This document shows positions 8,865-61,703 of a DNA stretch of 64,000 bases, in pieces (position 1 is the stretch's first letter; each line of letters opens with the position of its first letter). The position numbers and the translations under genes are program-made. The DNA is from Vicinamibacterales bacterium. GTDB taxonomy: Bacteria; Acidobacteriota; Vicinamibacteria; Vicinamibacterales; SCN-69-37. The stretch spans positions 12,815 through 76,814 of the forward strand of contig JBBDWL010000047.1 in the NCBI GenBank assembly GCA_040902895.1. Reading direction: 5' to 3'. The notes beneath the pieces are model-generated. The model did not search any database and was not told where the DNA came from. It saw only the letters and a list, made by a program, of their open reading frames with translations.

Positions 8865-9068
8865 GACAACAGCCACCGTTTCCCGCGTTGCCCCAGCCAC
8901 AGCGCCGAGCGGTATCGTGCGAGCGAACGTCGCCAGCCGCCCTTTCCGATTCACAGCAAGCCCCAGCAGGTAGATGTCCGTCAGCTGCTTCGCGCCTCCC
9001 GCGCCGGAGAGATCGAAGGGCGCATCGCGCAGCGAGATCGCATCGCGCCAGAACTGATAGCATCCGGA
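8865..9068 (-). pseudogene. vapC (PIN) gene fragment, 3' portion only
   Basis: The minus-strand translation QFWRDAISLRDAPFDLSGAGGAKQLTDIYLLGLAVNRKGRLATFARTIPLGAVAGATRETVAVV aligns to the C-terminal ~65 aa of the intact VapC at 21451..21891 (FWRDALSLRDDVFDL...IYLLGLAVNRKGRLATFDRSMPLGAVKGATAETLALI). An in-frame TGA lies directly upstream at 9069-9071. The N-terminal half is absent and the native stop is lost. Confidence 0.75.
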
Positions 9069-20423: not shown

Positions 20424-21394
20424 GCACGCTCACGCAGTACGAAACGCTCTTCGAGCGCCACGTCAGCAACCCGATCCTCACCGCCGCCGACTGGCCGTAT
20501 CCGGTGCACACGGTGTTCAACCCGGGCGCGACGAGGCTCGAGGACGGCACGACGCTGCTGCTGTGCCGCGTCGAGGATCGTCGCGGCCTGTCGCACCTGT
20601 GCGCGGCGCGATCGACGAACGGCGTCGATGGATGGGTGATTGATAAGGAGCCGACGTTCCCGGCCGATCCGGCGAAGCATCCCGAGGAACTGTGGGGTGT
20701 CGAGGATCCGCGCATCACATTCGTCGAGGAGCTCGGCAAGTACGCCATCGCCTACACGGCTTTCAGCCGCGGCGGTCCTGGTGTCGCGCTCGCGCTCACG
20801 AAAGACTTCCGCTCGTTCGAGCGGCTCGGACTGGTCATGCAGCCGGATGACAAGGACGCCGCGCTGATGCCGCGCCGCATCAACGGATGCTTCGCGCTGA
20901 TTCATCGCCCGGTGACCGAGTCAGGCGCGCATGTCTGGATGTCGCTGTCGCCCGATCTGCGCAACTGGGGCACGCACACATTGATTCTGCCGGCGCGCCG
21001 CGGCGCCTGGTGGGACGCCAACCGTGTCGGCCTGTCGCCGCCCCTGATCGAGACGCCGCGCGGATGGCTGATGATCTATCACGGCGTGAAGCGCACCGGC
21101 GCCGGCTGCCTCTATCGCATGGGCGCCGCGCTCTTCGATCGCGAAACGGCGCAGCGCTGCCTGCTGCGCGGCGACGCGTGGATCTTCGGGCCCGAGACGC
21201 CGTACGAGCGCGAGGGGGATGTCGGCTACGTCGCCTTTTCCTGCGGCTATACGCTGGACGATGACGGCGACGGGCTCAATCTGTATTACGGCGCAGCCGA
21301 TTCGAGCATCGCCCTGGCACGGGGAAGCGTCAAGCAGGTGCTCGCCTGGCTCGACGAGCACGGCGATCAGAAGCTCGATTCGTCGATGCGCTAA
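20420..21394 (+). CDS. GH130-family glycosidase / glycoside phosphorylase
   Basis: NPILTAADWPY..VFNPGA...LLCRVEDRRG...WGVEDPRITF...YAIAYTA is the GH130 (DUF377) beta-propeller pattern. Its start overlaps the upstream stop by 4 nt. Confidence 0.8.
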   Translation: MSTLTQYETLFERHVSNPILTAADWPYPVHTVFNPGATRLEDGTTLLLCRVEDRRGLSHLCAARSTNGVDGWVIDKEPTFPADPAKHPEELWGVEDPRITFVEELGKYAIAYTAFSRGGPGVALALTKDFRSFERLGLVMQPDDKDAALMPRRINGCFALIHRPVTESGAHVWMSLSPDLRNWGTHTLILPARRGAWWDANRVGLSPPLIETPRGWLMIYHGVKRTGAGCLYRMGAALFDRETAQRCLLRGDAWIFGPETPYEREGDVGYVAFSCGYTLDDDGDGLNLYYGAADSSIALARGSVKQVLAWLDEHGDQKLDSSMR

Positions 21395-21398
21395 AAAT

Positions 21399-21447
21399 GG
21401 GGACGGGTCTCTATTTTTCAGTTTTCGAAAAATAGAGACCCGTCCCC
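21399..21447. terminator. Family-B hairpin copy 1: 20-bp perfect stem between convergent genes; probable bidirectional intrinsic terminator
   Basis: GGGGACGGGTCTCTATTTTT-cagttttcg-AAAAATAGAGACCCGTCCCC is preceded by an A-run. It sits between the GH130 stop (21394) and the vapC stop (21451). Confidence 0.7.
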
Positions 21448-21450
21448 TGC

Positions 21451-21891
21451 TTAAATGAGCGCCAGCGTCTCCGCGGTTGCGCCCTTGACCGCGCCGAGCG
21501 GCATCGATCGATCGAACGTCGCGAGACGGCCCTTCCTGTTCACCGCGAGCCCCAGCAGGTAAATGCTGGTAACGCGGCCGTGGCCGCCGGCCCGCATCAG
21601 ATCGAACACATCATCCCGCAGCGAGAGGGCGTCGCGCCAGAACTGGTGATCGCCGCTCTCGCAAAACGCGCGCAGTCGATCGAGCGCCGTCGCCGCGCGC
21701 TCGCCGGCCGCGCCGTACGCTGGGTCCGACAGCACGCGCACGAACGCGCTCTCGGTGATCGGACAGGTCGCCCACCCGAAATGCCGGTTCGCCTCGAACC
21801 AGTCATGCGCGGCGTCGTGATGGATGTGATGCGGATCGAACAGCGCCACCAGCACGTTCACATCGAGCAGCGCCGGCGCACCGGCACTCAT
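21451..21891 (-). CDS. vapC: PIN-domain toxin VapC
   Basis: LLDVNVLVALFDPHHIHHDAAHDWF ... PITESAFVRVL ... TSIYLLGLAV. Its start shares one nt with the vapB stop (TAATG). Confidence 0.85.
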   Translation of the reverse strand: MSAGAPALLDVNVLVALFDPHHIHHDAAHDWFEANRHFGWATCPITESAFVRVLSDPAYGAAGERAATALDRLRAFCESGDHQFWRDALSLRDDVFDLMRAGGHGRVTSIYLLGLAVNRKGRLATFDRSMPLGAVKGATAETLALI

Positions 21892-22205
21892 TACTCTCCG
21901 GCGGGGACCCCTGCACCCCGCCTGGCTCGCTCGCTCGCGGGGCCCCCGCGCCCCGCTCCGCTCACTGCGCCCTCCTTGTCCCGCAGCTCGTTCACCAGCT
22001 TCATCGTCGGCCGCGGTTCGCCGGACGCACGCGGAGGCAGCAGCGGCACGCCGTTCCGCACAGGGATCTGTTCGGAGCCCCCCGCCTGCGCGAGCCCGCG
22101 CCGGGCCAGATCGGAGACAACTTTGCCAATCGTCGACCGCCTGCCGTGCGCTAACTCCTTGGCTGCCTGCAGGATGTCGTCATCGAGGTCGATAGTTGTC
22201 CGCAT
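21891..22205 (-). CDS. vapB: VapB-family antitoxin whose C-terminal ~25 codons and stop are encoded by a family-A repeat
   Basis: MRTTIDLDDDILQAAKELA is the VapB N-terminal signature. The tail AVSGAGRGGPASERARRGAGVPAGE is the translation of repeat copy 21899-21965. Confidence 0.75.
   Translation of the reverse strand: MRTTIDLDDDILQAAKELAHGRRSTIGKVVSDLARRGLAQAGGSEQIPVRNGVPLLPPRASGEPRPTMKLVNELRDKEGAVSGAGRGGPASERARRGAGVPAGE
21899..21965 (+). repeat. Family-A GC-rich double-hairpin repeat, copy 1
   Basis: GGCGGGG-acccctgca-CCCCGCC tggctcgctcgctc GCGGGGC-ccccgc-GCCCCGC. It is about 85 percent identical to the copies at 25438-25504 and 38647-38710 (the latter inverted). Confidence 0.85.
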
Positions 22206-22291
22206 GATGTGCGCTATCATCAAACATCACGCATCAGATGTCAAGAGATCCGCGAGCCCTAAAGGGCTGCGCCACCGCCTGAAGTCCCGGC

Positions 22292-23350: not shown

Positions 23351-23705
23351 GCGCCGAATCGCGCCGTATTTTCTAACGTTCGCTCTCGCCGGGCTCGTCC
23401 TGGCGCCCGTGTCCGCTCAGACCCAGGAACCGACCGCCGAGAAGACGATCACCGGTGAAGTGATCGACATCAAGTGCCATAAGGGCAAAGGCCATGAGGG
23501 CTGCGCCACCAGCTGCGTCCGCAAGGGCGAAGCGGCCGGCATCAAGGTCGGTGAAGAGGTCTACATGATCGTCGGTGATTTCACCGCCGACAAGAACGCC
23601 AAGCTCGTGGAGTTCGTCGCCAAAGACGTCGAGGCGACGGGCGTGATCGGCGAGAAGGACGGCCACAAGACGATTGCCGTCTCGAAGATCGCGCTGGTGA
23701 AGTAA
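23349..23705 (+). CDS. Small secreted hypothetical protein (118 aa)
   Basis: It has a signal peptide (FLTFALAGLVLAPVSAQ) and Cys-containing KCHKGKGHEGCATSC. Confidence 0.55.
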   Translation: MRRIAPYFLTFALAGLVLAPVSAQTQEPTAEKTITGEVIDIKCHKGKGHEGCATSCVRKGEAAGIKVGEEVYMIVGDFTADKNAKLVEFVAKDVEATGVIGEKDGHKTIAVSKIALVK

Positions 23706-23711
23706 AAAAAT

Positions 23712-23762
23712 GGGGACGGGTCTTAATTATTCATGCCGCGTGAATAATTAAGACCCGTCCCC
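23712..23762. terminator. Family-B hairpin copy 2: 22-bp perfect stem
   Basis: GGGGACGGGTCTTAATTATTCA-tgccgcg-TGAATAATTAAGACCCGTCCCC is flanked by AAAAAAAT and ATTTT. It starts 7 bp after the stop at 23705. Confidence 0.7.
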
Positions 23763-23839
23763 ATTTTCGAATATGCAGACCGCGGCGCGCGGGACCTACC
23801 GCGGCACACCAGCGTCATGAACGCGGTGGTCGCTCATTC

Positions 23840-24598
23840 ATGAAGACAGCAACGTCGGGCCTGACGGCCTTCCTGCTCGCCGTGCTCATGGCGCCGCCTG
23901 CCTCAGCTCAGAGCCTGCGCGGCAGCCCGGCGTCGCTCGATCGCCAGAACCGCCAGGCTCGTCGGCACGACTTCACGTTCCTGCGGCGGACCTCGCAGCT
24001 CGAGCGGTTCGTCGACGCCGGGCTGCTGGTGCCGCTCGAAGACGGCGGGCCGTACCGTCTGCACGACGTTTCCTTCAACGTCGCCAGGCCGGAGGTGAAG
24101 CTCTTCATCGAGCGCCTGTCGGCACAGTACCTGGCGGCGTGCGGCGAACGGCTGGTCGTCACCAGCCTGACCCGGCCGACGTCGCTGCAGCCCGCGAACG
24201 CGTCGCCGCGCTCCGTGCATCCGACGGGGATGGCCGTGGACCTGCGGGTCCCGGACGGCAAGTGCCGCGGCTGGCTCGAACGGACGCTCCTCACGCTCGA
24301 ACGCCGCCGGCTGCTCGACGCGACGCTCGAGCGGCATCCGCTGCATTTTCATGTGGCCGTGTTCCCCGACGGGTATCTTGCCTATGTCTCGCGCCTGACG
24401 GGACGTTCCGAATCGGCGCTCCTCGCCTCGGTGCTGCGGCCCGCGCGCCATACGGTGCGACGGTCCGAGACGCTCTGGGCGATCGCCGAGCGATACGGCA
24501 CGACGCCGGCGCGCATCAGCGAGGCCAACGGACTCACGTCCGACATCATTTACCCGGGACAGACGCTCGAGATCCCGCAAGACGGGGACGGGTCTTAA
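23840..24598 (+). CDS. Secreted protein with a C-terminal LysM domain (N-terminal domain possibly peptidase M15/DUF5715-like)
   Basis: It has a signal peptide. The LysM is HTVRRSETLWAIAERYGTTPARISEANGLTSDIIYPGQTLEIP. The last codons and stop lie inside a truncated family-B arm. Confidence 0.7.
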   Translation: MKTATSGLTAFLLAVLMAPPASAQSLRGSPASLDRQNRQARRHDFTFLRRTSQLERFVDAGLLVPLEDGGPYRLHDVSFNVARPEVKLFIERLSAQYLAACGERLVVTSLTRPTSLQPANASPRSVHPTGMAVDLRVPDGKCRGWLERTLLTLERRRLLDATLERHPLHFHVAVFPDGYLAYVSRLTGRSESALLASVLRPARHTVRRSETLWAIAERYGTTPARISEANGLTSDIIYPGQTLEIPQDGDGS

Positions 24599-24600
24599 TT
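24584..24600. repeat. Family-B half element (left arm only)
   Basis: GGGGACGGGTCTTAATT is identical to the first 17 nt of the left arm of copy 2. No right arm follows. It is squeezed between convergent stops at 24598 and 24601. Confidence 0.7.
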
Positions 24601-25665
24601 TCACCCCATCAGCATCGCCAGCAGCGCCTTCTGCGTGTGCAGGCGGTTTTCGGCCTGGTCGAAGACGATCGAGCGTGGACTGTCGATGACGGCGTCGGTG
24701 ACCTCATCGCCGCGATGCGCCGGCAGGCAGTGCATGAAGCACGCCTCGGGGCCGGCGGCCTGCATCAGCGCCTCATTCACCTGATACGGCCTGAAGATCG
24801 CATCGCGTTCCGCAGCCTGTTCTTCCTGGCCCATCGACGCCCAGACGTCGGTATAGACGGCGTCGGCGTCTTTGACGGCTTCGACAGGATCGCCGGTGAG
24901 CACCAGACGCGCGCCCCTGACGGCCTTGGCCCGCGCCGCGGCGGCGACATCCGCAGGCAGCTCGTAGCCTTTCGGCGAACCAATGCGGACGTTGATGCCG
25001 AGCATCAGCCCCGCCTGCGCGAGCGAGGCCGCGACATTATTGCCGTCGCCGACGTACGCCAGCGTCGCGCCCTCGAGCGAACCGCGCTGTTCGCGCAGGG
25101 TCAGCAGATCGGCAAGTGCCTGGCACGGATGCTCTTCGTTGGTCAGCGCATTGATGACGTGCATGCGCGGCGCCGCGGCGGCGAATTCCGCCAGCCGCGC
25201 CTGCTCGTAGGTGCGGACGACACAGCCTGCGACCCAGCGCTCGAGATTGCGCGCGACATCGGCGAGCGACTCGCGGCCGCCGAGCGCGACATCGGCCGGA
25301 GGCTCGATGACGTTGCCGCCCAGCTCGCGCACGGCGATCGTGAATGTCGATCGCGTGCGCAGCGACGGCTTCTCGAAGAGCAGCGCGATGTGCGCTCCAG
25401 CCAGCGGCATCACTTCCGGGAGATGCTCTTTTGATGGCGGCGGGGACCCCTGCACCCCGCCTAGCTCGCTCACTCGCGGGGCCCCGATGCCCCGCTCCGT
25501 TCGCTCGCGCCGCGCGGACTTCATCCCTGACGCGAGATCGAGACACGCTTCCAGTCCTTCAGGCGTGAAGTCGAGCACCGAAAGGAAATCCTTGGGCAGA
25601 CTGGTTGCTGGTTGCGGGTTGCTGGTTGCTGGTGCGACCGCCGCCACGCTGAGCGCTTGTTTCAC
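24601..25665 (-). CDS. argF: Ornithine carbamoyltransferase carrying an in-frame family-A repeat and a heptamer-encoded N-terminal extension
   Basis: FEKPSLRTRSTF (carbamoyl-phosphate site), HPCQALAD, HCLPAHRGDEV. The GTG start overlaps the argJ stop. The insert RERTERGIGAPRVSELGGVQGSPPP lies in the variable loop before the STRTR motif. Confidence 0.9.
   Translation of the reverse strand: MKQALSVAAVAPATSNPQPATSLPKDFLSVLDFTPEGLEACLDLASGMKSARRERTERGIGAPRVSELGGVQGSPPPSKEHLPEVMPLAGAHIALLFEKPSLRTRSTFTIAVRELGGNVIEPPADVALGGRESLADVARNLERWVAGCVVRTYEQARLAEFAAAAPRMHVINALTNEEHPCQALADLLTLREQRGSLEGATLAYVGDGNNVAASLAQAGLMLGINVRIGSPKGYELPADVAAAARAKAVRGARLVLTGDPVEAVKDADAVYTDVWASMGQEEQAAERDAIFRPYQVNEALMQAAGPEACFMHCLPAHRGDEVTDAVIDSPRSIVFDQAENRLHTQKALLAMLMG
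25438..25504 (+). repeat. Family-A GC-rich double-hairpin repeat, copy 2 (inside argF)
   Basis: GGCGGGG-acccctgca-CCCCGCC tagctcgctcactc GCGGGGC-cccgat-GCCCCGC. Confidence 0.85.
25601..25635. repeat. Heptanucleotide tandem array (CTGGTTG-like x5) inside the argF 5' coding end
   Basis: ctggttg ctggttg cgggttg ctggttg ctggtgc; it is translated as APATSNPQPATS. Confidence 0.75.
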
Positions 25666-35457: not shown

Positions 35458-38421
35458 ATGACACGCGCGTTTTCACTCAGGCCCGCCCAGGCGGCGGCTG
35501 CCGTCCTTTTTCTGATCGCCCTCGTCACCACGTCGGCGGCCCCGGCCGCGCGGCAACAGACGCGCTCGGCGCAGCGGATCGACGAAGCGTATACGAAGCT
35601 GATTCGTGAGCACTCGACGGAAAAGCGCGTGATGACCGAGCTCGTCGATCATCTGCCGGCGTCAGACTCGGTGCCGACGCCGCTCAAGTTTCTTGGCTAC
35701 GTGCCCGGCACGCCTGGCAAGCTGACGTATCACTCGGAGATCGTCCGGTATCTCGAGGCGCTCGACAAGGCGTCGGACCGTGTGACGCTGACGGTGATCG
35801 GCAAGAGCGACGAGGGGCGCGACATGGTGAGCGTCGCCATCGCCGACGAGGCCACCATCCGGAATCTCGAAAAGTACAAGCAGATCACCGCCGAGCTCGG
35901 CGATCCGCGGAAGATTTCAGACGAGCATGCGCGGCAGCTCGTCGCAGCGGGCAAGCCGATCTACTACGCGCTGGGCAGCATCCACTCGACCGAGTACGGC
36001 AGCCCCGAGATGCTGATGGAGCTCGCGTACCGCATGGCGGTCGGCGAGTCGCCGTTCATCCAGCAGATCCGCAACAACATCATCTTCGTGCTCACGCCGT
36101 CCACCGAAGTCGACGGACGCGAGCGCGCGGTCGACAACTTTCGCTTCCAGCAGGCGAATCCGGGCGAGCCCGCGCCGGGGATGGTCTATTGGGGCAAGTA
36201 CGTCGCGCACGACAACAACCGTGACGCGATGGGGCAGGGCCTGCGGCTCACGCAGGTCATGATGAAGACGTTTCTCGACTGGCATCCGACCGTGTGGCAC
36301 GACCTGCACGAGTCGGTCACCCTGCTGTACACCTCCACCGGCACCGGTCCCTACAACCCCATCGTCGACGCCATTCAGGTCGACGAGTGGTGGCTGCTGG
36401 CGAAGACCGAGATCATGGAGATGACCAAGCGCGGCGTGCCCGGCGTGTGGACCTACAACTTCTATGACGGCTGGGTGCCGAACTACCTGTTCTGGATCGC
36501 CAACACGCACAACTCGATCGGCCGCTTCTATGAGACGCAGAGCTATCGCGGCGTGAACTATGCGCTCGGCGCGGCGCAGAGCCGCGAATGGTACCGGCCG
36601 AATCCGACGCCGGCCGGCGTGCAATGGGGACCCCGCAGCAACATCAACATGCAGCAGTCCGCGATTCTGCTCGCGATGAATCACGTCGCGAAGAACAAAG
36701 AGACGTACCTCGACAACTATTACGTGAAGAGCAAGCGGGCGATCGCCCGCGGCAACGAAGGCACGGACGTGCCGAACGCGTACGTGATTCCGGCCGCGCA
36801 GCACACGGCGGCGCACGCGGCGGATCTCGTGAACCTGGTGCGCGTGCAGGGCGGCGAAGTGCATCGCGCGACGGCGGCGTTCAAGGCGGGCGGCGTGGAC
36901 GTTGCGGCGGGCGACTACATCCTGCGCATGGATCAGCCGTACGGCCCGCTGGTCGAGACGATCATGGGCGTGCAGTGGTATCCGCCCGACAACCCGCGTC
37001 CCTACGACGATCTCGGCTGGACGTTCCCGTACCTGCGCAATGTCAAGCACGACGTCATTCGCGACAAGGCCATTCTCACGCAGCCGATGACGCTGATGGC
37101 GGCCGACGCGAAGCTGGCCGGCGGCGCGTCGGGCACGGGCCGCACACTTGTCATCAACCACACGACCGACAACAATCTGGCGACCTTCCGCTTCATGCAT
37201 CCGAACGTGAAGATGCTGGCGGGCGAGAAGGAATTCGAGGCGGGCGGCAAACGGTTCGTCGCGGGCTCGTTCATCATTCCGGATGCGGATCGTGCGGCGC
37301 TCGACAAGTCGCTGACGGCGCTGGGCATCACGGCTGTGGCCGTCGATGCGGTCCCCACCGTGGCGACGCACGATCTCGACGTGCCGCGCGTCGGCTACAT
37401 CCACACCTGGACGAACACCCAGGATGAAGGCTGGGTGCGCCTCGCGTTCGATCACTACAAGATTCCGTACACGTACTTCGCCGACAACACGATTCGCGCC
37501 GGCGCGAACCTCAAGTCGAAGTACGACGTGATCATCTTCCCGCACACGAGCGGCAGCGCCGCGTCGATCCTCACGGGACGGCAGGGCCCGACGCCGGTCC
37601 CATACAAGAAGAGCAGCGTGACGCCGAACATGGGCGGCGTCGACGAGACCGATGACATGCGGGGCGGACTCACGCGCGACGGGTTGCGCGAGCTGGAGAG
37701 GTTCGTCGCCGAGGGCGGCGTGCTGATCACCGAAGGCGTCACGTCGACCTTGTTCCCCGAGTACCGCCTCACCGAAGGCGTGACGATCGAGCAGGCGAGC
37801 GGCCTGTGGGTACCCGGCTCGGTGCTCAAGGCGAACATCGCCGACAGGTCGAGCCCGCTTGCGTATGGCTACAACCAGAACTCGATCGGCGTGTACTTCG
37901 ACTCGTCGCCCGTGATGCGCGTCGGCAACGCCGGCTTCGGCGGCGGACGCGGCCGCGCGGGCGGTCCGGATCTCGGCCAGCCGAACCAGCAGCCGAACGC
38001 GGCGGCCCCGCGCCTGACAACGCTCGAGGGGGGGACGGCGCCGACGCCTGCCGGCGCGCGTGCCGGTGCCGGCGGCGGCGGACGCGGTGCCGGTCAAGGA
38101 CGCGGCGGCGGCGGACGCGGCGGCGCGCCGAGCACTTCGGCAACGGCATCAGGGCCGCGCGTCATCCTGCAGTTTCCTGACGATGCAGACGATCTGCTGT
38201 TGTCGGGCGGCATGGTTGGCGGCGAAGCGCTCACCGGCCGCGCGGTGCTGGTGGATGCGCCGCTCGGCAAAGGCCATGTCGTGATGTTCGCCACGCGCCC
38301 CTACTGGCGCTGGCAGACGCACGGCCTGTTCTTCCTCGGCTTCAACGCGATTCTGAACTGGAACGATCTCGACGCCGGCCGTCCAAAGCCGACAACTCCG
38401 ACGAACCAGGGCGGCCAGTAA
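35458..38421 (+). CDS. Large secreted M14-family metallocarboxypeptidase-like protein
   Basis: It has a signal peptide and the M14-type region IHSTEYGSPEMLMELAYRM. An RGG/Gly-rich low-complexity segment lies near residue 840. Confidence 0.7.
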   Translation: MTRAFSLRPAQAAAAVLFLIALVTTSAAPAARQQTRSAQRIDEAYTKLIREHSTEKRVMTELVDHLPASDSVPTPLKFLGYVPGTPGKLTYHSEIVRYLEALDKASDRVTLTVIGKSDEGRDMVSVAIADEATIRNLEKYKQITAELGDPRKISDEHARQLVAAGKPIYYALGSIHSTEYGSPEMLMELAYRMAVGESPFIQQIRNNIIFVLTPSTEVDGRERAVDNFRFQQANPGEPAPGMVYWGKYVAHDNNRDAMGQGLRLTQVMMKTFLDWHPTVWHDLHESVTLLYTSTGTGPYNPIVDAIQVDEWWLLAKTEIMEMTKRGVPGVWTYNFYDGWVPNYLFWIANTHNSIGRFYETQSYRGVNYALGAAQSREWYRPNPTPAGVQWGPRSNINMQQSAILLAMNHVAKNKETYLDNYYVKSKRAIARGNEGTDVPNAYVIPAAQHTAAHAADLVNLVRVQGGEVHRATAAFKAGGVDVAAGDYILRMDQPYGPLVETIMGVQWYPPDNPRPYDDLGWTFPYLRNVKHDVIRDKAILTQPMTLMAADAKLAGGASGTGRTLVINHTTDNNLATFRFMHPNVKMLAGEKEFEAGGKRFVAGSFIIPDADRAALDKSLTALGITAVAVDAVPTVATHDLDVPRVGYIHTWTNTQDEGWVRLAFDHYKIPYTYFADNTIRAGANLKSKYDVIIFPHTSGSAASILTGRQGPTPVPYKKSSVTPNMGGVDETDDMRGGLTRDGLRELERFVAEGGVLITEGVTSTLFPEYRLTEGVTIEQASGLWVPGSVLKANIADRSSPLAYGYNQNSIGVYFDSSPVMRVGNAGFGGGRGRAGGPDLGQPNQQPNAAAPRLTTLEGGTAPTPAGARAGAGGGGRGAGQGRGGGGRGGAPSTSATASGPRVILQFPDDADDLLLSGGMVGGEALTGRAVLVDAPLGKGHVVMFATRPYWRWQTHGLFFLGFNAILNWNDLDAGRPKPTTPTNQGGQ

Positions 38422-38425
38422 AAAT

Positions 38426-38472
38426 GGGGACGGGTCTGAATTATTCAGAATGAATAATTCAGACCCGTCCCC
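38426..38472. terminator. Family-B hairpin copy 3: 22-bp perfect stem
   Basis: GGGGACGGGTCTGAATTATTCA-gaa-TGAATAATTCAGACCCGTCCCC is flanked by AAAAT and ATTT. It lies between the stop at 38421 and the ATG at 38477. Confidence 0.7.
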
Positions 38473-38476
38473 ATTT

Positions 38477-39610
38477 ATGCAAATCGGCATCATCGGCGCC
38501 GGCATCATCGGGTGCGCCATCGCCCACGAGCTTGCGTCACGCGGCGCGAAGGTCACGGTTTTCGAGCGGCGAGGCGTGGCGCGCGGCGCGAGCTGGGCGT
38601 CCGCGGGGGTCCTGGCGCCGTGGATAGAGGCGGGCCATGCGAGGAAGCGGAGTGGGGTGTCTGGGGCCCCACGAGCGACCGAGCCAGGCGGGGTGCAGGG
38701 GGCCCCGCCGACGGAAGAAGATCCGCTGCTCGAAATGTGCGCCCGCAGCCTCGCGCTCTACGATGACTTCGTCGACCGCGTGCGCGCCGATGGCGGCGCG
38801 GCCTTCGACTATGCGCGCGCCGGCACACTGGAAGCGGCCTTTACGGAAGATCAGGCCGCCGCGCTGCGGCGCACCGCGCAAGCGCTCGCGTCACACGGCG
38901 TCCGCGCGGCGTGGCTCGATCGACACGATGCGCGCGCGCTGGAGCCCGCCCTTGGTGGCGGCGTTCTAGGCGGCCTGCGCATCGATGAGCATGGCTTCGT
39001 CGAGATGCCCGGCCTCGTCGACGCGGTCTCGGTCGCCGCGCGCATGCGAGGCGCCGCCTTTCATTCGCCTGTCGACATCACGAAAATCGAGCCCGCGCCC
39101 GCCGGGAAGGTACGCATCCACGCGGCCGGCACCACTCACACCTTCGATCACCTCGTCATTGCTGCCGGAAGTTGGGCGAACCGGCTGAAGGCGGGTGGGC
39201 CGTCAATCAGGCCCGTCAAAGGCCAACTCGTCAGGCTGAAATTCGACGCGGCCCCTGCCACGCGCGTCCTTTGGTCCGAAGGCTGCTATATGGTTCCCTG
39301 GCGCGACGGAACGCTGCTGGTGGGCGCGACCGTCGAGGACGCAGGATATGACGAGCGCCCAACGGCAGCGGCGGTGACGTCGCTGCTGGATGCCGCGGCG
39401 GCGCTGCTGCCGGCCACGCGAGACGCGGGATTCGTCGACGTTCGCGCGGGCCTTCGGCCGGCTCCGGCCGACGGCGGCGGGCTGCCGCACATCGGTGCCG
39501 CTCCGGCGCTCGCGAACGTGACGATCGCGACGGGACATTTCCGCAACGGCGTGCTGCTCGCGCCATTGACGGCAAAGCTCGTCGCGGATCAGCTCATTCC
39601 CGCCAGGTAA
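38477..39610 (+). CDS. FAD-dependent oxidoreductase, glycine oxidase (ThiO)/DAO family, carrying an in-frame family-A repeat
   Basis: MQIGIIGAGIIGCAIAHELA is the dinucleotide-binding motif. The start is trimmed to 38477 because the listed upstream codons are the hairpin. The insert is RKRSGVSGAPRATEPGGVQGAPP. Confidence 0.8.
   Translation: MQIGIIGAGIIGCAIAHELASRGAKVTVFERRGVARGASWASAGVLAPWIEAGHARKRSGVSGAPRATEPGGVQGAPPTEEDPLLEMCARSLALYDDFVDRVRADGGAAFDYARAGTLEAAFTEDQAAALRRTAQALASHGVRAAWLDRHDARALEPALGGGVLGGLRIDEHGFVEMPGLVDAVSVAARMRGAAFHSPVDITKIEPAPAGKVRIHAAGTTHTFDHLVIAAGSWANRLKAGGPSIRPVKGQLVRLKFDAAPATRVLWSEGCYMVPWRDGTLLVGATVEDAGYDERPTAAAVTSLLDAAAALLPATRDAGFVDVRAGLRPAPADGGGLPHIGAAPALANVTIATGHFRNGVLLAPLTAKLVADQLIPAR
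38647..38710 (-). repeat. Family-A GC-rich double-hairpin repeat, copy 3 (inverted; inside the ThiO-like gene)
   Basis: The reverse complement reads GGCGGGG-ccccctgca-CCCCGCC tggctcggtcgctc GTGGGG-ccccagaca-CCCCAC. The second stem carries a compensatory C:G to T:A change relative to copies 1 and 2. Confidence 0.85.
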
Positions 39611-43868: not shown

Positions 43869-45476
43869 CTACCGCTTCTGGAATTCGGGCGAGCCGAGCA
43901 GCAGGACGAGCTGCTTCGGTTTGTCGGTGGCCTTCGCGACCGTCGCGCGCGTGCCTGGCGACAACGTGTCTTGCGACACGACGGTGTCGGGATCGACCGT
44001 GGCCGGGGCGACGCGTGTGCCGGGCAGCCGGTTCGCGACGAGCGCCACGGCAAAGTTCATGCGGTTGATCAGCGCGCCGCTGTTCACCCACGTCACCGCC
44101 CTGTCGCTGTAGCCGGTCGGCGGCTGCGCGCCATAGAGCGGCATCCCGAGCGTGCGCAGCTGCTGCACGAGAGGCGCAGCGTTGCGCACGTCGGCGCCGG
44201 TCGCGCGCATCGCGCTGACGACGAACTCGAACGGCGTCTTGACCTTCGCGCGCCGCGCCTCGGCCGACATGAACTCTGGCGACGTCACGATGGCGCGCGT
44301 CACCTTCTTCAAATCGCCGTCGCTGTCGAGAAACACCTTCGCGACGCGATCGACGAGCGCCGGCGGAGGAGTGTCGCACACGAAGCGCGTCACGAGCTTG
44401 CGCGCGATGTGCTTCGCCGTCGACGGATGGCGGGCGACGATGTCGAGCACGAGCTCGCCGTCGCGGCGGCCGCCATTGGCGGGAATGCGGTGGCCGAGGA
44501 CGATCTTTTCGCCTTTGTCGTGAATGCGATCGTTGAACGTGAAGTCGCCGCCGCCGCGACGCGGCGCCTCAATCGTCCACCCGGTGAAGGCGCGCGCCAC
44601 TTCGATGACGTCCTTCTGCGTGTAGCCGCCGTCGACGCCGAGCGTGTGCAACTCGAGCAGCTCGCGTCCGTAGTTCTCGTTGAGGCCGCGCGCGGGCCGG
44701 GCTGGCTGCTGCATCGAACCCGGTTGATTATTCCCGGTTCGCCTGCGCGCTCCTGGGCGGAACCGGGAATAATCAACCGGGTTCATTTCGGGCGCCGCAC
44801 TCATCCAGTTGTCGAGATACCAGAGCATCGCGGGACTCTCTGCCGTGGCGCCGAGCATCTCGCGGAAGTTTCCCAGCACGTGCGGACGGATCGCCTCGCG
44901 TTCGTACTCAGTGAGATAGAAGCGCGCGAATTGCCCCTTGCCTGCAAAGACGTTGAAATGGTTGAACCAGAAGTCGACCAGTACTTCCTCGAGCTGACGC
45001 TCGCTGTAGACGGCCCGCAGCAGCTTCTGCTGCGAGAGCTCGATGAGGGGAAGATTGGCCTGCTGCCGTTGCCGCATCTCGGCAGGAGCGGGCGCCGGCA
45101 TCTGCCCAGGCTCGGTCGGCGGCGGCGCCATCTGCGGCGCGCCTTGCGCGCGGTTCGGCTGTCGGGCCTGCTGCGCGTTCCGCTGCTGCGGCGGCGTGTA
45201 GAACCGCGAGGCAATCTCGCTGCTCGAGAGATCCAGCGTCTGGAACGCAGACAGCTTCTGCTCGACCGCTTCATCGGGGATGGATGATGGACTCAGCTGC
45301 GACGCGATGTACTTCTCGAGTCCCATCGCGCGCACGCGATCGACATCGCCCGGCCGGGCTCCAAATCCGATCCGGCCAAGCACGTGCAGGATTGCCTCAT
45401 CGTCCTGTCCCGCCGTGAGGCTTGCGGTTCCGGCAGCCAGAACGGCGCAGAAGGTGATCGCCTTGAAAACTTTCAT
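43869..45476 (-). CDS. DUF1800 domain protein, secreted
   Basis: LLELHTLGVDGGYTQKDV is the DUF1800 hallmark. It forms the usual DUF1800-DUF1501 pair. Confidence 0.85.
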   Translation of the reverse strand: MKVFKAITFCAVLAAGTASLTAGQDDEAILHVLGRIGFGARPGDVDRVRAMGLEKYIASQLSPSSIPDEAVEQKLSAFQTLDLSSSEIASRFYTPPQQRNAQQARQPNRAQGAPQMAPPPTEPGQMPAPAPAEMRQRQQANLPLIELSQQKLLRAVYSERQLEEVLVDFWFNHFNVFAGKGQFARFYLTEYEREAIRPHVLGNFREMLGATAESPAMLWYLDNWMSAAPEMNPVDYSRFRPGARRRTGNNQPGSMQQPARPARGLNENYGRELLELHTLGVDGGYTQKDVIEVARAFTGWTIEAPRRGGGDFTFNDRIHDKGEKIVLGHRIPANGGRRDGELVLDIVARHPSTAKHIARKLVTRFVCDTPPPALVDRVAKVFLDSDGDLKKVTRAIVTSPEFMSAEARRAKVKTPFEFVVSAMRATGADVRNAAPLVQQLRTLGMPLYGAQPPTGYSDRAVTWVNSGALINRMNFAVALVANRLPGTRVAPATVDPDTVVSQDTLSPGTRATVAKATDKPKQLVLLLGSPEFQKR

Positions 45477-48016: not shown

Positions 48017-49668
48017 ACGGGCAGGCTCCACGGATCGCGTCTGCGCGTGGAGGTCGACGCGTCGCTTGTGCGGCCGTCACCCGTGCCGCGGCCCGTGGCA
48101 CGCAGAATTGCCGCCGCGGCATTGCGCCCTGGCGCCGCCATGATGCCGCCGCCCGGATGCGTGGCCGATCCGCACATATACAGGTTGCGCACCGGCGTGC
48201 GATACGAGGCCCACCCCGGCGCGGGACGCAGGAAGAAGAGCTGCTCGAGCGTGAGCTCGCCCTGAAAGATGTTGCCTTCCGAAAGTCCCCACTCCCGCTC
48301 GAGGTCGAGCGGCGTGACGACCTGGCGGTGCAGGATGATGTCTTTGATGTTGGGCGCGTGCTCGGCGATCGTATTGATGACGGTGTCGCCGAACGCCTCC
48401 TTCTGCTCGTCCCAGGTGCCGTCCTTCAGGTGATACGGCGCGTATTGCACAAAGCACGACATTACATGCTTGCCTGACGGCGCGACGCTGGGATCGGTCA
48501 GGCTCGGGATCACGATGTCCATGTACGGCCGTCTCGAAAACCGTCCGTACTTCGCATCGTCATACGCCCGTTCCATGTAATCGATGCTGGGCGAGATCGA
48601 CATCGCGCCGCGCAGGTGGGGGCCGGCGCCCGGCAGCGATGTGAAATTGGGGAGCGCGTCGAGCGCGAGATTGACCTTGCCCGACGATCCGCGGAATTTG
48701 TAGCGGTTGATGTCTTCGACGAAATCCTCCGGCAGGTGCTCGACGCCCGTCATCTTGATGAACGTGAGCCGCGGATCCACGCTCGACGCGACGACGCCGC
48801 CAAGGATGTAGTCGCCGTTCTCGAGGATGACGCCGGTGGCCGTGCCGTTCGACACGATGATTTTCGCCACCGCGGTTTCGGTGCGAATGTCGGCGCCCGC
48901 GGCACGCGCGGCGCTCGCGATGGCGTTCGACACCATGCCCGTGCCGCCTCGCGAAAGGCCCCACGACCGGAACGCGCCGTCGATTTCTCCCATGTAGTGG
49001 TGCAGCAGCACGTACGCGGTGCCGGGGGATCGCACGCCGAGGAAGGTGCCGATGATGCCCGACGCCGACATCGTGGCCTTGAGGACGTCGGTCTCGAACC
49101 ACTGATCGAGAAAATCGACCGCGCTCATCGTCATCAGCTGCAACTGGTTGTAGCGGTCGCGCGGCGGAAGGCGGCGAAAGCGATTGACGAGCCCGATCAT
49201 CTCGCGGATGCCCGCAAGACCGGGCCTGGTTGGATCGGGCGGCGTCATCGCCATGATCGGCTTGACGAAGCGTCCCATCTCGATCATCGCCTGCGAGTAC
49301 TCATCGTAGGCTTCGGCGTCGACCTTCGAGTGACGGGCGATCTCGCGGCGCGTCTGCCCATGGTCGTTCGTGCGCCACAGATAGTTGCCGTCGGGCATCG
49401 GCGTGAACGTGCCGTCGAGCGGCAGAATCTCGAGGCCGTGCCGCGCGAGATCGAGCTCGCGAATAATCTCGGGACGCAGCAGCGACACGACGTATGACGC
49501 GACCGAAAACTTGAAGCCGGGAAAGATCTCTTCGGTCACCGCCGCGCCGCCAAGCACGTGCCGCCGCTCGAGCACGAGCACCTTGCGCCCCGCGCGGGCC
49601 AGATAGGCGGCCGTGGTCAATCCGTTGTGACCGCCACCGATGATGATCGCGTCGTATTTCTGCGACAT
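48013..49668 (-). CDS. Phytoene-desaturase-family (CrtI-like) NAD(P)/FAD-dependent oxidoreductase, a paralogue of the downstream gene
   Basis: YDAIIIGGGHNGLTTAAYLARAGRKVLVLERRHVLGGA, with the C-terminal GSATHPGGGIMAAPG. Confidence 0.8.
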   Translation of the reverse strand: MSQKYDAIIIGGGHNGLTTAAYLARAGRKVLVLERRHVLGGAAVTEEIFPGFKFSVASYVVSLLRPEIIRELDLARHGLEILPLDGTFTPMPDGNYLWRTNDHGQTRREIARHSKVDAEAYDEYSQAMIEMGRFVKPIMAMTPPDPTRPGLAGIREMIGLVNRFRRLPPRDRYNQLQLMTMSAVDFLDQWFETDVLKATMSASGIIGTFLGVRSPGTAYVLLHHYMGEIDGAFRSWGLSRGGTGMVSNAIASAARAAGADIRTETAVAKIIVSNGTATGVILENGDYILGGVVASSVDPRLTFIKMTGVEHLPEDFVEDINRYKFRGSSGKVNLALDALPNFTSLPGAGPHLRGAMSISPSIDYMERAYDDAKYGRFSRRPYMDIVIPSLTDPSVAPSGKHVMSCFVQYAPYHLKDGTWDEQKEAFGDTVINTIAEHAPNIKDIILHRQVVTPLDLEREWGLSEGNIFQGELTLEQLFFLRPAPGWASYRTPVRNLYMCGSATHPGGGIMAAPGRNAAAAILRATGRGTGDGRTSDASTSTRRRDPWSLPV

Positions 49669-49671
49669 GAG

Positions 49672-49745
49672 CAGGAGACAGGATACAGGAGACAGTAAAC
49701 AGGAGGGAGCTCCTGTCTCCTGTATTCTGTATCCTGTCTCCTATG
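49672..49745. promoter_or_regulatory. Dyad-symmetric array of heptamers filling the divergent intergenic region
   Basis: caggaga caggata caggaga cagtaaa caggagg - gagc - tcctgtc tcctgta ttctgta tcctgtc tcctATG. AGGAGACAGGATACAG (49673-49688) is the exact reverse complement of 49726-49741. The array lies between the start codons at 49668 (minus) and 49743 (plus). Confidence 0.7.
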
Positions 49746-50957
49746 CCTGTCGCGTCTCCGTTGCACTCTCGCACCTTTCCCCTGTGCACCAGCCTGAACT
49801 ATCGCGATTGGGCCGGGTACTACGCGGTGAGCGCGTACGAGACGCATCACGAGCATGAGTACAACGCGATCCGCAACGGCGCGGCGCTGATCGATATCTC
49901 TCCGCTGTTCAAATACATCCTTCGCGGTGCCGATGCGACGCGGCTCGTGGACCGCATCATCACGCGCAATGCGCAGAAGATGAAGCTCGGGCAGGTCTAC
50001 TACACGCCGTGGTGCGATGAACGCGGCATGGTGCTCGACGATGGGACAGTGACACGGCTGGAGGCGAACGCGTATCGCTGGACCGCAGCAGAGCCGAATC
50101 TGCGGTGGATACGCGAGAACGCGCGCGGCTTCGACGTGGAGATCGAAGACGCGTCGGAACGCATTGCGGCGATGGCGCTGCAGGGGCCGACGTCCGGCGC
50201 GTTGCTGCTGCGCGCAGCGGAGGCCGACATCGCGTCATTGAAGTACTTCCGGATGACCGAGGGCCGCATCCAGGGCATTCCGGTCGAGATTTCACGCACC
50301 GGATATACCGGCGATCTGGGGTTCGAGATCTGGGTCGCGGCCGACCAGGCGTCTGCCGTGTGGGACGTGCTGATGAAGGAAGGCCGCGCGTTTGGCGTGA
50401 AGCCCACCGGCATGCTCGCGCTCGACGTGTCGCGCATCGAAGCGGGGCTGCTGCTGATTGACGTCGATTTTTTCAGCGCGCGCAAAGCGCAGATCGCGTC
50501 GCAGCTTTACACGCCGTACGAGATGAGCCTCGACAGGCTGGTGGATCTCGCGAAAGAATCATTTATCGGCCGCGCGGCGCTGGCACAAGCCGCCAAACGC
50601 GGCCCGGCCCGCCGCATCGTCGGACTCGAATTCGACTGGCCCGAGGTTGAGCGCATCTACGAACACGTGGGACTGCCGCCGATGACGACGGCGACGGCGT
50701 CGCGTGTGGCCGTGCCCGTGTACTCGGGCGGCCGGCAGGTTGGCCGCGCGACCTCGACGACCTGGTCACCGATCCTCAAGCGCATGATCGCGCTCGCCAC
50801 GCTCGACGCATCAATGTCGGCGCCAGGCACGCACGTCGACGTCGAGCACACCGTCGATGCCGTCCGGCACCGCGTCGGCGCGACGGTCACGCCAACACCC
50901 TTCTACAATCCGCCTCAGAAGACGGGGCCGCTAGGAACAGCCCAAGGTAAATCGTAG
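49743..50957 (+). CDS. Aminomethyltransferase-family (GcvT-like) folate-binding protein
   Basis: YNAIRNGAALIDISPLFKY, RTGYTGDLGFEIW and the C-terminal barrel. It is longer than, and diverged from, canonical GcvT. Confidence 0.8.
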   Translation: MPVASPLHSRTFPLCTSLNYRDWAGYYAVSAYETHHEHEYNAIRNGAALIDISPLFKYILRGADATRLVDRIITRNAQKMKLGQVYYTPWCDERGMVLDDGTVTRLEANAYRWTAAEPNLRWIRENARGFDVEIEDASERIAAMALQGPTSGALLLRAAEADIASLKYFRMTEGRIQGIPVEISRTGYTGDLGFEIWVAADQASAVWDVLMKEGRAFGVKPTGMLALDVSRIEAGLLLIDVDFFSARKAQIASQLYTPYEMSLDRLVDLAKESFIGRAALAQAAKRGPARRIVGLEFDWPEVERIYEHVGLPPMTTATASRVAVPVYSGGRQVGRATSTTWSPILKRMIALATLDASMSAPGTHVDVEHTVDAVRHRVGATVTPTPFYNPPQKTGPLGTAQGKS

Positions 50958-61573: not shown

Positions 61574-61602
61574 GCCCGCCTGAGCGCCGGCGAGGAAATG
61601 AC

Positions 61603-61645
61603 CGGGCGCGGCTGCGATTTCTTAACGCCGTCGCGAATGAACACC
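61603..61645. repeat. Family-C repeat core, intergenic copy
   Basis: CGGGCGCGGCTGCGATTTCTTAACGCCGTCGCGAATGAACACC. Its 31-nt centre differs at 2 positions from 63365-63395. Confidence 0.7.
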
Positions 61646-61671: not shown

Positions 61672-61703
61672 ACCAACAACCAGCAACCAACAACCAGCAA
61701 CCG
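61672..61703. repeat. Heptanucleotide tandem array (ACCARCA x4.5) immediately downstream of the FeS-NrfD gene stop
   Basis: accaaca accagca accaaca accagca accg. It is the reverse complement of the unit in the argF array. Confidence 0.7.

Follow-up and report, generated by a model that had tools for sequence, protein, structure and literature searches.

A dispersed two-hairpin repeat of Vicinamibacterales at gene boundaries, beside tRNA genes and in frame within coding sequences

Members of the Vicinamibacterales count among the most abundant bacteria of soils, and what is known of them comes almost entirely from metagenome-assembled genomes. A short G+C-rich repeat made of two hairpins occurs in three copies in the window analysed here, i.e., a stretch of 64,000 nt of contig JBBDWL010000047.1 (assembly GCA_040902895.1, positions 12,815-76,814 of the forward strand): at the junction between a vapB-like and a vapC gene (copy 1), within the argF gene for ornithine carbamoyltransferase (OTCase; copy 2) and within the gene for a ThiO-like glycine oxidase (copy 3), always in the same orientation relative to the host or downstream gene. 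These copies probably represent one family of short, non-coding, dispersed and structured repeats of Vicinamibacterales, which multiply in genomes, are tolerated at gene boundaries and likely act as hairpins in RNA. In kind, the family would stand beside REP/BIME, the MIRU (mycobacterial interspersed repetitive units, reportedly going back to Supply and colleagues in 1997) and the RPE (Rickettsia palindromic elements, which are said to go back to Ogata and colleagues in 2000).

That further copies exist had been set beforehand as a test, and the exact 23-nt core of the repeat, GGCGGGGNCCCCTGCACCCCGCC, scanned across 185,579 species-representative genomes, was present in at least 111 stretches from at least 51 other assemblies. 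All family-wide counts reported here are among the matches listed, and the copy set consists of 129 exact cores, the three of the window included. With the assembly of the window, the repeat is known from at least 52 assemblies, nearly all labelled Vicinamibacterales or Acidobacteriota (the exceptions are one Planctomycetaceae and one Solibacteraceae assembly); no core copy was found in viral contigs. A covariance model built for the repeat (R1), run over 0.8 Mb of loci and flanks, recognized 132 copies. For 30 of 107 copies the nearest neighbour belonged to the same genome, where 4.4 would be expected, and the subfamilies are genome-specific; the excess of same-genome neighbours indicates multiplication or homogenisation within genomes.

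In the window, the three copies could be read directly at the sites given in the earlier note, the third being inverted (Table 1). They align over ~72 nt, with 90% identity over 68 nt between copies 1 and 2 and 94% over 48 nt between copies 1 and 3. The core has three matches, where chance expectation is 0.00 (100 dinucleotide shuffles) even at 3 mismatches, and no fourth copy was found in the 64 kb by an nhmmer profile made from the three.

Anatomy of the repeat and selection on its stems

Throughout this text, the sense strand is that of the host or downstream gene, which is the reverse complement of the strand used in the earlier note; loci and predicted proteins are designated by L and P numbers, respectively. 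The unit was defined by an alignment of 49 two-hairpin copies. It measures ~79-80 nt, has ~75% G+C and consists, in this order on the sense strand, of a 12-nt leader (GCGAGGGAGCGG), hairpin 2 (consensus GCGGGG-N8-9-CCCCGC), a 14-nt spacer (AGCGAC(C)GAGCC(A/T)), hairpin 1 (GGCGGGG-UGCAGGGGN-CCCCGCC, or GGCGGGG-TGCAGGGGN-CCCCGCC from the 49-copy alignment) and a 10-nt A-rich tail, the A+T content of which is 65-80% as compared with ~35% further out. With its leader and tail, the unit is longer than the ~65 bp first proposed. Subfamilies differ in the tail (GATCnAAGAA, ATTCAAAAA or GGAGAGAAA), and others have a longer interrupted hairpin in place of hairpin 2. Hairpin 1 (GGCGGGG-N9-CCCCGCC) is seen in all three window copies, and the 14-nt spacer TGGCTCG(C/G)TC(G/A)CTC was confirmed; the 8-nt loop ascribed to hairpin 2 is found in copies 1 and 2, whereas that of copy 3, whose second stem does read GTGGGG...CCCCAC, has 9 nt.

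In tandem arrays, the periods are 42, 69, 81, 85 and 170 nt and the tail runs straight into the next leader, so that the ATG frequently found after the tail is host sequence and lies outside the unit. One array (L063:3171-3297) is made of 42-nt units with hairpin 1 only, another (L033:1617-2043) of three 170-nt units, and a predicted 225-aa protein, P0260, matches the element peptide in 7 stretches. The hairpin 2 module is also fused to other G+C-rich hairpins, e.g., GTGGGGCGGAGCCCCAC and CCGCGGGGGCGAAGCCCCGCGG, which replace hairpin 1 (L064:5119-5203, L064:6034-6113, L055:7729-7815 and L070:1169-1253); this swapping suggests that the hairpin repeats of these genomes form a modular set.

The double change in the second stem of copy 3 had been taken as a sign of selection on structure, and the argument gains strength from covariation and from stems at orthologous sites. 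In the R1 alignment, 98% of the cells are paired and 11 of the 13 pairs are changed on both sides (76 cells); the observed values are reached in 0 of 500 shuffles, and pairing is 46-80% when the partners are slid. At one pair of hairpin 2, 40 copies of the 49-copy alignment have C:G, 5 have U:A and 2 have U·G, and the orthologues of the ThiO-like gene show the path of such a change, from GTGGGG...CCCCGC with a U·G pair in L022 to GTGGGG...CCCCAC with U:A in the window. Hairpin 1 is itself compensated in one non-ascertained copy (GCCGGGG...CCCCGGC).

An independent and stronger case than the R1 alignment is the orthologous site located 3' of tRNA-Gly(GCC) in four species, where the element is alignable and the rest of the spacer to tRNA-Cys is not. 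Here the inner stems of module 2 read GCCAGCG/CGCTGGC, GCCGACG/CGTCGGC, GCTGGCC/GGCCAGC and GTCGGCG/CGCCGAC, and the outer stems GCGGCC/GGCCGC, GCGACC/GGTCGC, GCGCCG/CGGCGC and GCAGCC/GGCTGC, all of the listed stem changes being compensatory. The mismatches that do occur are of the G·T/T·G type in 20 cases and of the A·C/C·A type in 3 when read on the sense strand, and this excess of wobble-type mismatches argues that it is on that strand, whether RNA or single-stranded DNA, that pairing is maintained. Taken singly, the copies have unexceptional folding energies (z -0.7 to -2.2 vs shuffles), and such modest values prove little in DNA of 65% G+C; the case for structure rests on covariation.

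Placement at gene boundaries and within coding sequences

By position, the 129 listed copies comprise 32 with a start codon within 14 nt, 14 with a start codon at 15-30 nt and the native Shine-Dalgarno sequence kept, 17 (~13%) that are intragenic and in frame, 15 adjacent to tRNA genes, 9 internal to tandem arrays and 42 other or unclassified. On the sense strand an ATG is found 8-12 nt past hairpin 1 in 43 of the 129, most often at 9 nt (23 copies), and most of these ATGs open long open reading frames (ORFs). Judged by a GC3-based heuristic, 65 copies have their downstream gene on the same strand and 7 on the opposite one, with 43 and 8, respectively, for the upstream gene. Where start-adjacent copies have a recognisable upstream gene, its stop codon is near, within or after the element in 15 of 22: 4-12 nt before the leader in 7, within the element in 4, and overlapping the next start in 4 (L007, L105, L110 and the window vapB), which indicates that the element often occupies the entire intercistronic spacer. 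The adjacent start reads ATGA in 24 of 39 copies, and the frame encoding GGVQG ends at that TGA in 12.

Copy 1 is in this typical start-codon-adjacent position: its tail, GGAGAGTA, runs up to the vapC ATG, and the vapB stop codon TAA overlaps that ATG (GGAGAGTAATG, TAATG). All three copies had been described as insertions inside ORFs, which is true of the OTCase and ThiO-like genes but not of vapB, where the element forms the last ~25 codons of the ORF and is not internal. For this ORF, the Pfam match to VapB_antitoxin covers residues 7-26 only and is below the cut-off (E = 4.5e-4, 20.5 vs 23.4 bits). As previously observed, the OTCase and ThiO-like genes read the element in one frame (..GAPR..E.GGVQG.PP..) and the vapB-like ORF in another (..ARRGAGVPAGE, then stop). 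A degenerate fragment at 8872-9056 is 77-81% identical to the vapC part at 21461-21645, has no intact ORF and is probably a decayed vapBC paralogue; being degenerate, it was unusable as an element-free vapBC for comparison. Elsewhere, at L005:560-700, a decayed copy ending in ..GCTGTAGATGA is directly followed by an intact one ending in ..GATCTGATAAATGA, and the product of the next gene, which we take from its reading to be trmD-like, starts MKLDIVTIFP; the two copies may be successive insertions at one start codon.

The copies beside tRNA genes are of two kinds. In the first, the tail is 9-14 nt (in one case 21 nt) from the 3' end of a tRNA gene on the opposite strand (Gly-GCC, Gly-TCC, Cys, Leu and Arg); in the second, it lies 9-16 nt ahead of the 5' end of a same-strand tRNA gene (Trp, Thr and Gln). 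Several tRNA-adjacent copies are at orthologous sites across species.

The host protein of copy 2 (354 aa) is 100% identical to the NCBI record 'MAG: ornithine carbamoyltransferase [Vicinamibacterales bacterium]'. In a DNA alignment with two empty sites, L114 (P0003) and L116 (P0005), a 78-nt segment is present in the window gene alone. Orthologues P0003, P0005, P0006, P0008 and others, 78-87% identical, miss the 26 encoded residues (17 aligned), as do the more distant OTCases P0075 and P0097, which bears out the earlier view of an insertion. Shortened versions of the insert are found in P0002 and P0004, and at the DNA level P0002 has the same insertion together with a 30-nt host deletion. The 5' junction is ambiguous over 7-8 nt, GCGAGCG, assignable to host or element. 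The insert sits between the first helix and the strand preceding the SxRTR motif, and in an AlphaFold2 model (pTM 0.80) it appears as a low-confidence loop within an otherwise confident fold, residues 66-80 having pLDDT <50 between a helix (35-57) and a strand (92-97); OTCases in the PDB align from residue 88 onwards only. The close relative DATKDT01 carries the ThiO copy (L022) but has an OTCase without insert (P0020), apparently on the same 48,621-nt contig. At 25603-25633 the argF gene of the window contains an imperfect repeat of 31 nt, GGTTGCTGGTTGCGGGTTGCTGG.., whose second copy, inverted and with 90% complementarity, is found at 61672-61702; the first copy falls in the N-terminal extension of OTCase (..ATSNPQPATS..), which is common to the orthologues.

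The ThiO-like site of copy 3 is empty in P0125, P0127, P0128, P0134 and the distant P0170 and P0231, as judged by protein alignment. For the OTCase and ThiO-like genes taken together, the segment is absent from orthologues of 75-87% identity and from every distant one. Empty ThiO-like orthologues miss ~25 residues and have HExG where the window protein has ~28, and in comparison with PDB 4YSH 32 residues (49-80) replace 6 of the solved chain. Between the copies of the window and L022 there are 2 differences in ~70 positions, while the coding flank has diverged. The same site carries an inverted element in P0122, P0123, P0126 and P0146, translated as ..AGTPAPRLAxSLAG.., and P0127, P0128 and P0156, close relatives of these proteins, are empty. 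The host flanks are common to both orientations, GCG GGC CRT before and GAT CCG CTG CTC after the element, and the tail is GACGGAAGAA in the sense copy of the window and GGAGAGTG in the antisense copy of L112. Both orientations can be compared in L112:1620-1820, L117 and L118, on one side, and in window positions 38570-38770, L022 and L119, on the other; in L117 the antisense tail adjoins a host His codon, CAT, which is ATG on the element strand. In P0124, 39 nt have been lost between the GGGGCCCCGC repeats of the two hairpins. Hot-spot reinsertion, in-place inversion or conversion between copies are possible origins of this two-orientation site.

Fourteen further copies are in long ORFs with coding signatures on either side, and ten of these were tested by Pfam. 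The match spans the insert in a PALP enzyme (PALP, 28-346) and in a protein of the beta-lactamase family (Beta-lactamase, 51-407), and in Hsp70 the HSP70 match is cut into two stretches by 1.5 copies. In Era, MMR_HSR1 precedes the insert and GTP_EFTU and KH follow it; in Obg, the GTP1_OBG and MMR_HSR1 matches end before the insert, after which an NKxD motif was read by eye; in methionyl-tRNA synthetase (MetRS), the insert is located between the anticodon-binding and tRNA-binding domains. The Pfam match of DNA polymerase III delta' (HolB) starts at profile position 51, after the insert, the best Thy1 stretch of ThyX comes after both of its two antisense copies, and in a DUF255 protein the matches end well before the single antisense copy. 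A ParB-like candidate (L009) had no Pfam family match. Leaving aside this candidate and the DUF255 protein, the eight other hosts are counted as having Pfam domains that flank or span the element.

By our own count, the coding copies use the frame ..GGVQGxPP.. in ~11 cases, the frame ..ARRGAGxPA.. in ~5 and the third frame in none; the predicted element-encoded segment is ..GAPRVSELGGVQGSPPP... Only 7% of the repeat is T, for which reason most of its reading frames have no stop codon and coding copies are translated as a Gly/Pro/Arg-rich loop. The proportion of stop-free frames is 71-88%, where 72% is predicted from base composition; open frames need no special explanation, since random sequence of equal composition is open in 72%, and an adaptation of the element for open frames was ruled out. 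A 47-aa peptide profile found only 15 short ORFs among 5.8 billion proteins and 16 matches among 1.84 billion cluster representatives, insert-bearing proteins being presumably hidden behind representatives without the insert.

Explanations for the spread and retention of the repeat

The account that we consider probable starts from what the copies show: they multiply or are homogenised within a genome and survive where they do least harm, that is, in short spacers between co-directional genes, with the tail against the next start, and beside tRNA genes. About 1 in 8 lies inside a gene, at a tolerant surface loop and with an insert length divisible by three. On this account, the element would most likely be co-transcribed with its host gene, and the hairpins would be selected on the transcript strand and form stable RNA structures at cistron boundaries, with protection or processing of the mRNA, or a translation context for the next gene, as likely roles. 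An upstream ORF that reads through the element and ends at an ATGA or TAATG overlap would permit translational coupling.

Several points weigh against this account. With a stable hairpin ending 9-10 nt ahead of the ATG, initiation might be impeded as easily as promoted, and no internal start codon that would complete a coupled mini-ORF of the MIRU style was found in the start-adjacent copies. The mismatch asymmetry could in part be a transcription-linked mutation bias, selection on single-stranded DNA of the sense strand would give the same pattern, and the transcript-strand argument does not extend to the copies 3' of tRNA genes, which run antisense to the tRNA. As for the data themselves, loci were retrieved by the exact hairpin 1 pattern, which makes the conservation of hairpin 1 partly an ascertainment effect; the alignment for pair counts was fitted to the model structure, which favours the pairing values; and genes in the loci were called crudely, by a GC3/ORF heuristic instead of a gene finder.

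A possible reading, though on the unlikely side, is that the repeat serves the host as a cis-acting 'punctuation' module at cistron and tRNA boundaries, for RNA processing, stabilisation or translation context, the coding copies being accidental. It would account for the site at tRNA-Gly(GCC), kept in four species with compensatory stems beside an unalignable spacer, for orthologous copies before tRNA-Trp in three species and for the near-identity of the ThiO copies of the window and L022 within a diverged coding flank. The same genes, moreover, are preceded by a copy across species (trmD-like in L005 and L011, gmhB-like in L043 and L095, as named from N-terminal sequences), and many copies directly precede housekeeping genes (eno, pgk, tig, lepA, prs and carA, again judged from N-terminal sequences). 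However, presence and absence differ between close relatives, genome-specific subfamilies and tandem arrays indicate multiplication or concerted evolution, insertions in essential genes with later decay or internal deletions (P0002, P0004, P0124 and P0126) resemble tolerated accidents, and the 42 unclassified copies have no recognisable boundary context.

Descent from a transposon is, in our estimate, an unlikely origin. The repeat would then be a miniature derivative of the IS200/IS605 or RAYT type (PATE or REP), moved by an HUH tyrosine transposase that acts on single-stranded DNA via subterminal hairpins and recognizes a short target such as WTGR (on the other strand YCAW, followed by the junction), with selection leaving the insertions at start codons and at the CCA ends of tRNA genes. 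The architecture agrees with that of the PATE and IS200/IS605 miniatures: two subterminal hairpins ~10-12 nt from the ends, strand asymmetry, a conserved end ...CTCGC, no terminal inverted repeats (the ends GCGAGG... and ...AAGAA of the alignment are not inverted) and no target-site duplication, the longest word common to both flanks being 4.87 nt vs 4.45 nt in mismatched controls. A 10-nt flank match, CAGGGGTCAG, was discarded as a duplication, for it sits in a locally repetitive flank. An ATG or TTG follows hairpin 1 by 8-11 nt in 57 of 119 copies vs ~11% of control windows, and some of these ATGs are not starts, being out of frame in Hsp70 (L104) or His codons of the opposite strand (L101, L117). 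That the ThiO site is filled in both orientations by different subfamilies fits as well. Yet in the copies that lack a gene boundary to account for it, such a triplet occurs in 12 of 74 (16%) vs ~11%, and WTGR was not supported as target site, given that the excess of ATG or TTG is gone outside start codons and tRNA ends. A TG is missing from the junctions of copies 5' of tRNA-Trp, neither a GTAG nor a CGTC tag is present beside either hairpin in the 49-copy alignment, and the mismatch-tolerant strand puts the putative target 3' of the element, unlike the geometry of IS608. In the 0.8 Mb of flanks no Y1/RAYT-like gene was found by tblastn with IS608 TnpA and E. coli RAYT as queries, the best transposase matches having E = 0.045 and 0.34 in regions L061 and L087, which hold unrelated ORFs. 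Unlike PATE, no parent IS or TnpA/TnpB gene with these ends was seen in the flanks, and a fixed target tetranucleotide was not demonstrated. For the abutment on start codons two readings remain, namely insertion next to WTG followed by selection, or insertion into a short spacer followed by loss of non-functional DNA.

Spread by recombination without a transposase, through gene conversion, template switching or microhomology-mediated capture at end-like sites, seems to us improbable. The OTCase target (GCGAGCG, followed by the junction) and the leader share 7-8 nt of microhomology, but a clear case of it is seen at one junction only. Extra bases that do not belong to the element occur at junctions (GAGCAT in OTCase, ATGATCGAC in L117), modules are shuffled, as where hairpin 2 is combined with different hairpin types (L064, L055 and L070), the 39-nt internal deletion of P0124 lies between repeats, and ThiO alleles with and without the element are intermingled in close relatives. 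Against this, recombination explains neither the arrival at new sites by itself nor the sharp abutment on start codons.

We give equally little credence to a more far-reaching reading, in which the repeat would be more than a selfish element that is tolerated: a structured boundary module used by the cell, e.g., for processing, stability or translation coupling at start codons and tRNA ends, and conserved at orthologous sites of different species by compensatory evolution. Alternatively, it would follow a hitherto undescribed targeting of start codons and CCA ends with reinsertion at one site in either orientation; a side effect would be the continual seeding of surface loops in essential enzymes. 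Finally, it is hardly conceivable that the peptide is a low-complexity protein linker of ancestral or convergent origin, or that assembly or binning produced the repeats: the encoded peptide is Gly/Pro-rich and modelled as disordered and every genome involved is metagenome-assembled, but this notion is already refuted by close and distant orthologues without the segment, by identity at the DNA level across three different frames, non-coding spacers and tRNA neighbourhoods, and by the occurrence in 52 assemblies from many independent projects.

Relation to known repeats and neighbouring sequences

The earlier note had compared the repeat with the RPE. This holds for the insertion in frame, but the coding copies are only ~13% and the usual niche is a start-codon spacer or the side of a tRNA gene, in fixed orientation, so that MIRU and REP are at least as close. 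MIRUs insert at start codons with a -4 spacing (PMC12548453), and their ORFs overlap the flanking genes (PMC3184786). Like them, the present repeat is a G+C-rich unit within the range of 40-100 nt, located within operons, oriented with transcription and placed exactly at start codons, with open frames through the unit, stop/start overlaps downstream and tandem arrays. As to a small ORF of the MIRU type, the 3' overlap is common (the ATGA and TAATG junctions described above), and a 5' start codon is not conserved, the frame being entered by upstream read-through in 4 copies. Unlike MIRU, the family belongs to a different phylum, and neither a start codon for a mini-ORF of its own nor tetranucleotide direct repeats at filled sites were found; two covarying hairpins, the association with tRNA ends and frequent in-frame insertions inside coding sequences are features for which we have no MIRU source.

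The RPEs are palindromic repeats inserted in frame in unrelated housekeeping genes, where they are translated as an additional peptide in places that the fold can accommodate (PMC10969869; PMC3733652); they are ~100-150 nt long (PMC3184786; PMC10969869) and carry a CGTC tag (PMC3733652). The in-frame hosts found here (OTCase, ThiO, Era, Obg, MetRS, HolB, Hsp70, the PALP enzyme and ThyX) are the parallel. The differences from the Rickettsia elements are the size of ~80 nt, the ~75% G+C, the confinement to Acidobacteriota, the start-codon and tRNA niche, the strong orientation bias and the absence of a CGTC tag at either end; also, some RPE families have around half of their copies in ORFs.

REPs occur within genes in several species (Di Nocera et al., 2013, PMC3733652). 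With REP/BIME the repeat has in common G+C-rich hairpin blocks of 20-25 nt, species-specific variants, a location between co-directional genes with some copies in or overlapping ORFs, a proposed role as RNA hairpins and, sometimes, the same site in related species. Absent here are the mostly gene-downstream position, the GTAG/CGTC tag and the usually inverted pairs; no RAYT gene, to which the GTAG REPs are linked, was found in the flanks, and unlike REP the hairpins are in direct order in a fixed 80-nt unit, whose A-rich tail abuts the start of the next gene.

Other classes were considered and rejected: MITEs derived from DDE transposons, for want of terminal inverted repeats and target-site duplication; an intrinsic terminator, which would need a U-run after a G+C-rich hairpin on the transcribed strand, as an A-rich tail comes after hairpin 1 on the sense strand and a T-rich stretch lies ahead of the hairpin on the other; and integron attC sites or CRISPR repeats, as the copies are dispersed beside housekeeping genes, with no cassette arrays and no regular spacing. 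Rfam gave no match in the window and only tRNAs in 18 loci, with no copy of the repeat at any gathering threshold. One copy has a weak full-length alignment on the sense strand to the Acido-1 RNA motif (RF01686), likewise an acidobacterial structured RNA, but membership was rejected at 12.5 bits vs a gathering threshold of 50 (E = 3), and the other window copy tested had no match. The repeat is absent from Rfam and no description was found in the literature searched, in line with the earlier impression that the family had not been described. Lacking the defining sequence features of REP, RPE, MIRU and MITE, it is a separate repeat family, which resembles REP, MIRU and RPE in behaviour and is unrelated to them in sequence (for RPE, as judged from size and tag).

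The family brings together traits so far described for separate systems, i.e., the in-frame insertion into essential genes of the RPE, the exact start-codon placement of the MIRU and the selected hairpins of the REP; its combination of placement at start codons and tRNA ends, strand-specific conservation of structure and in-frame insertion is unusually clean. A high-copy repeat open in most frames will mislead gene callers, which may extend N-termini falsely, fuse ORFs or predict spurious 'hypothetical proteins' of 44-73 aa, and will inflate the apparent diversity of proteins; R1 would allow it to be masked. The pairs of filled and empty OTCase and ThiO alleles are natural tests of how proteins absorb a 26-residue loop and, should the hairpins act on transcripts, they would constitute a widespread regulatory layer internal to operons in the phylum.

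Table 1. Features in the window related to the repeat and its surroundings
Feature	Position	Strand	Basis or remark
Copy 1, full element	21890-21974	-	Covariance-model match, 77.5 bits
Copy 2 (flagged), full element	25429-25513	-	Covariance-model match, 84.3 bits, whole model covered
Copy 3, full element	38634-38719	+	Covariance-model match, 86.2 bits
Hairpin 1, copy 1	21900-21922		Exact core match on (+)
Hairpin 1, copy 2	25439-25461		GGCGGGG-ACCCCTGCA-CCCCGCC; exact core match on (+)
Hairpin 1, copy 3	38687-38709		Exact core match on (-)
Hairpin 2, copy 1	21937-21956
Hairpin 2, copy 2	25476-25495		GCGGGG-CCCCGATG-CCCCGC
Hairpin 2, copy 3	38652-38672		GTGGGG-N9-CCCCAC, compensated pair
vapC (PIN domain)	21451-21891	-	ATG 8 nt past hairpin 1
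vapB-like antitoxin ORF	21891-22223	-	ORF and Pfam; last ~25 codons are the element
Ornithine carbamoyltransferase (argF), 354 aa, host of copy 2	24601-25665	-	Pfam PF02729, PF00185
78-nt segment absent from orthologous OTCase genes	25423-25500	-	DNA alignment; encodes TERGIGAPRVSELGGVQGSPPPSKEH
FAD-dependent glycine oxidase (ThiO-like), host of copy 3	38477-39610	+	Start as in NCBI record P0121
Second inverted-repeat family	21392-21451, 23705-23767, 24577-24606, 38419-38476

Other repeats are found in the vicinity. A second family in the window is a near-perfect inverted repeat of 26-30 nt, AAAATGGGGACGGGTCTnAATTATTCA / TGAATAATTnAGACCCGTCCCCATTTT, flanked by A- and T-runs and located at gene ends, which looks like a repeated bidirectional terminator; through its last copy the ThiO ORF gains a spurious N-terminal extension (MNNSDPSPF). 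In assembly JAHECP01, short tandem units of CACGGAATGG(N) flank several element copies (L048, L061 and L100) and are translated in spurious ORFs as PWRFPWRF... The window also has inverted repeats at 49662-49753 (44-nt arms, 4 nt apart), 44716-44784 (perfect 25-nt arms, 19 nt apart) and 63300-63419 (38-nt arms, 44 nt apart), and a pair of direct repeats at 61577-61634 and 63333-63390.

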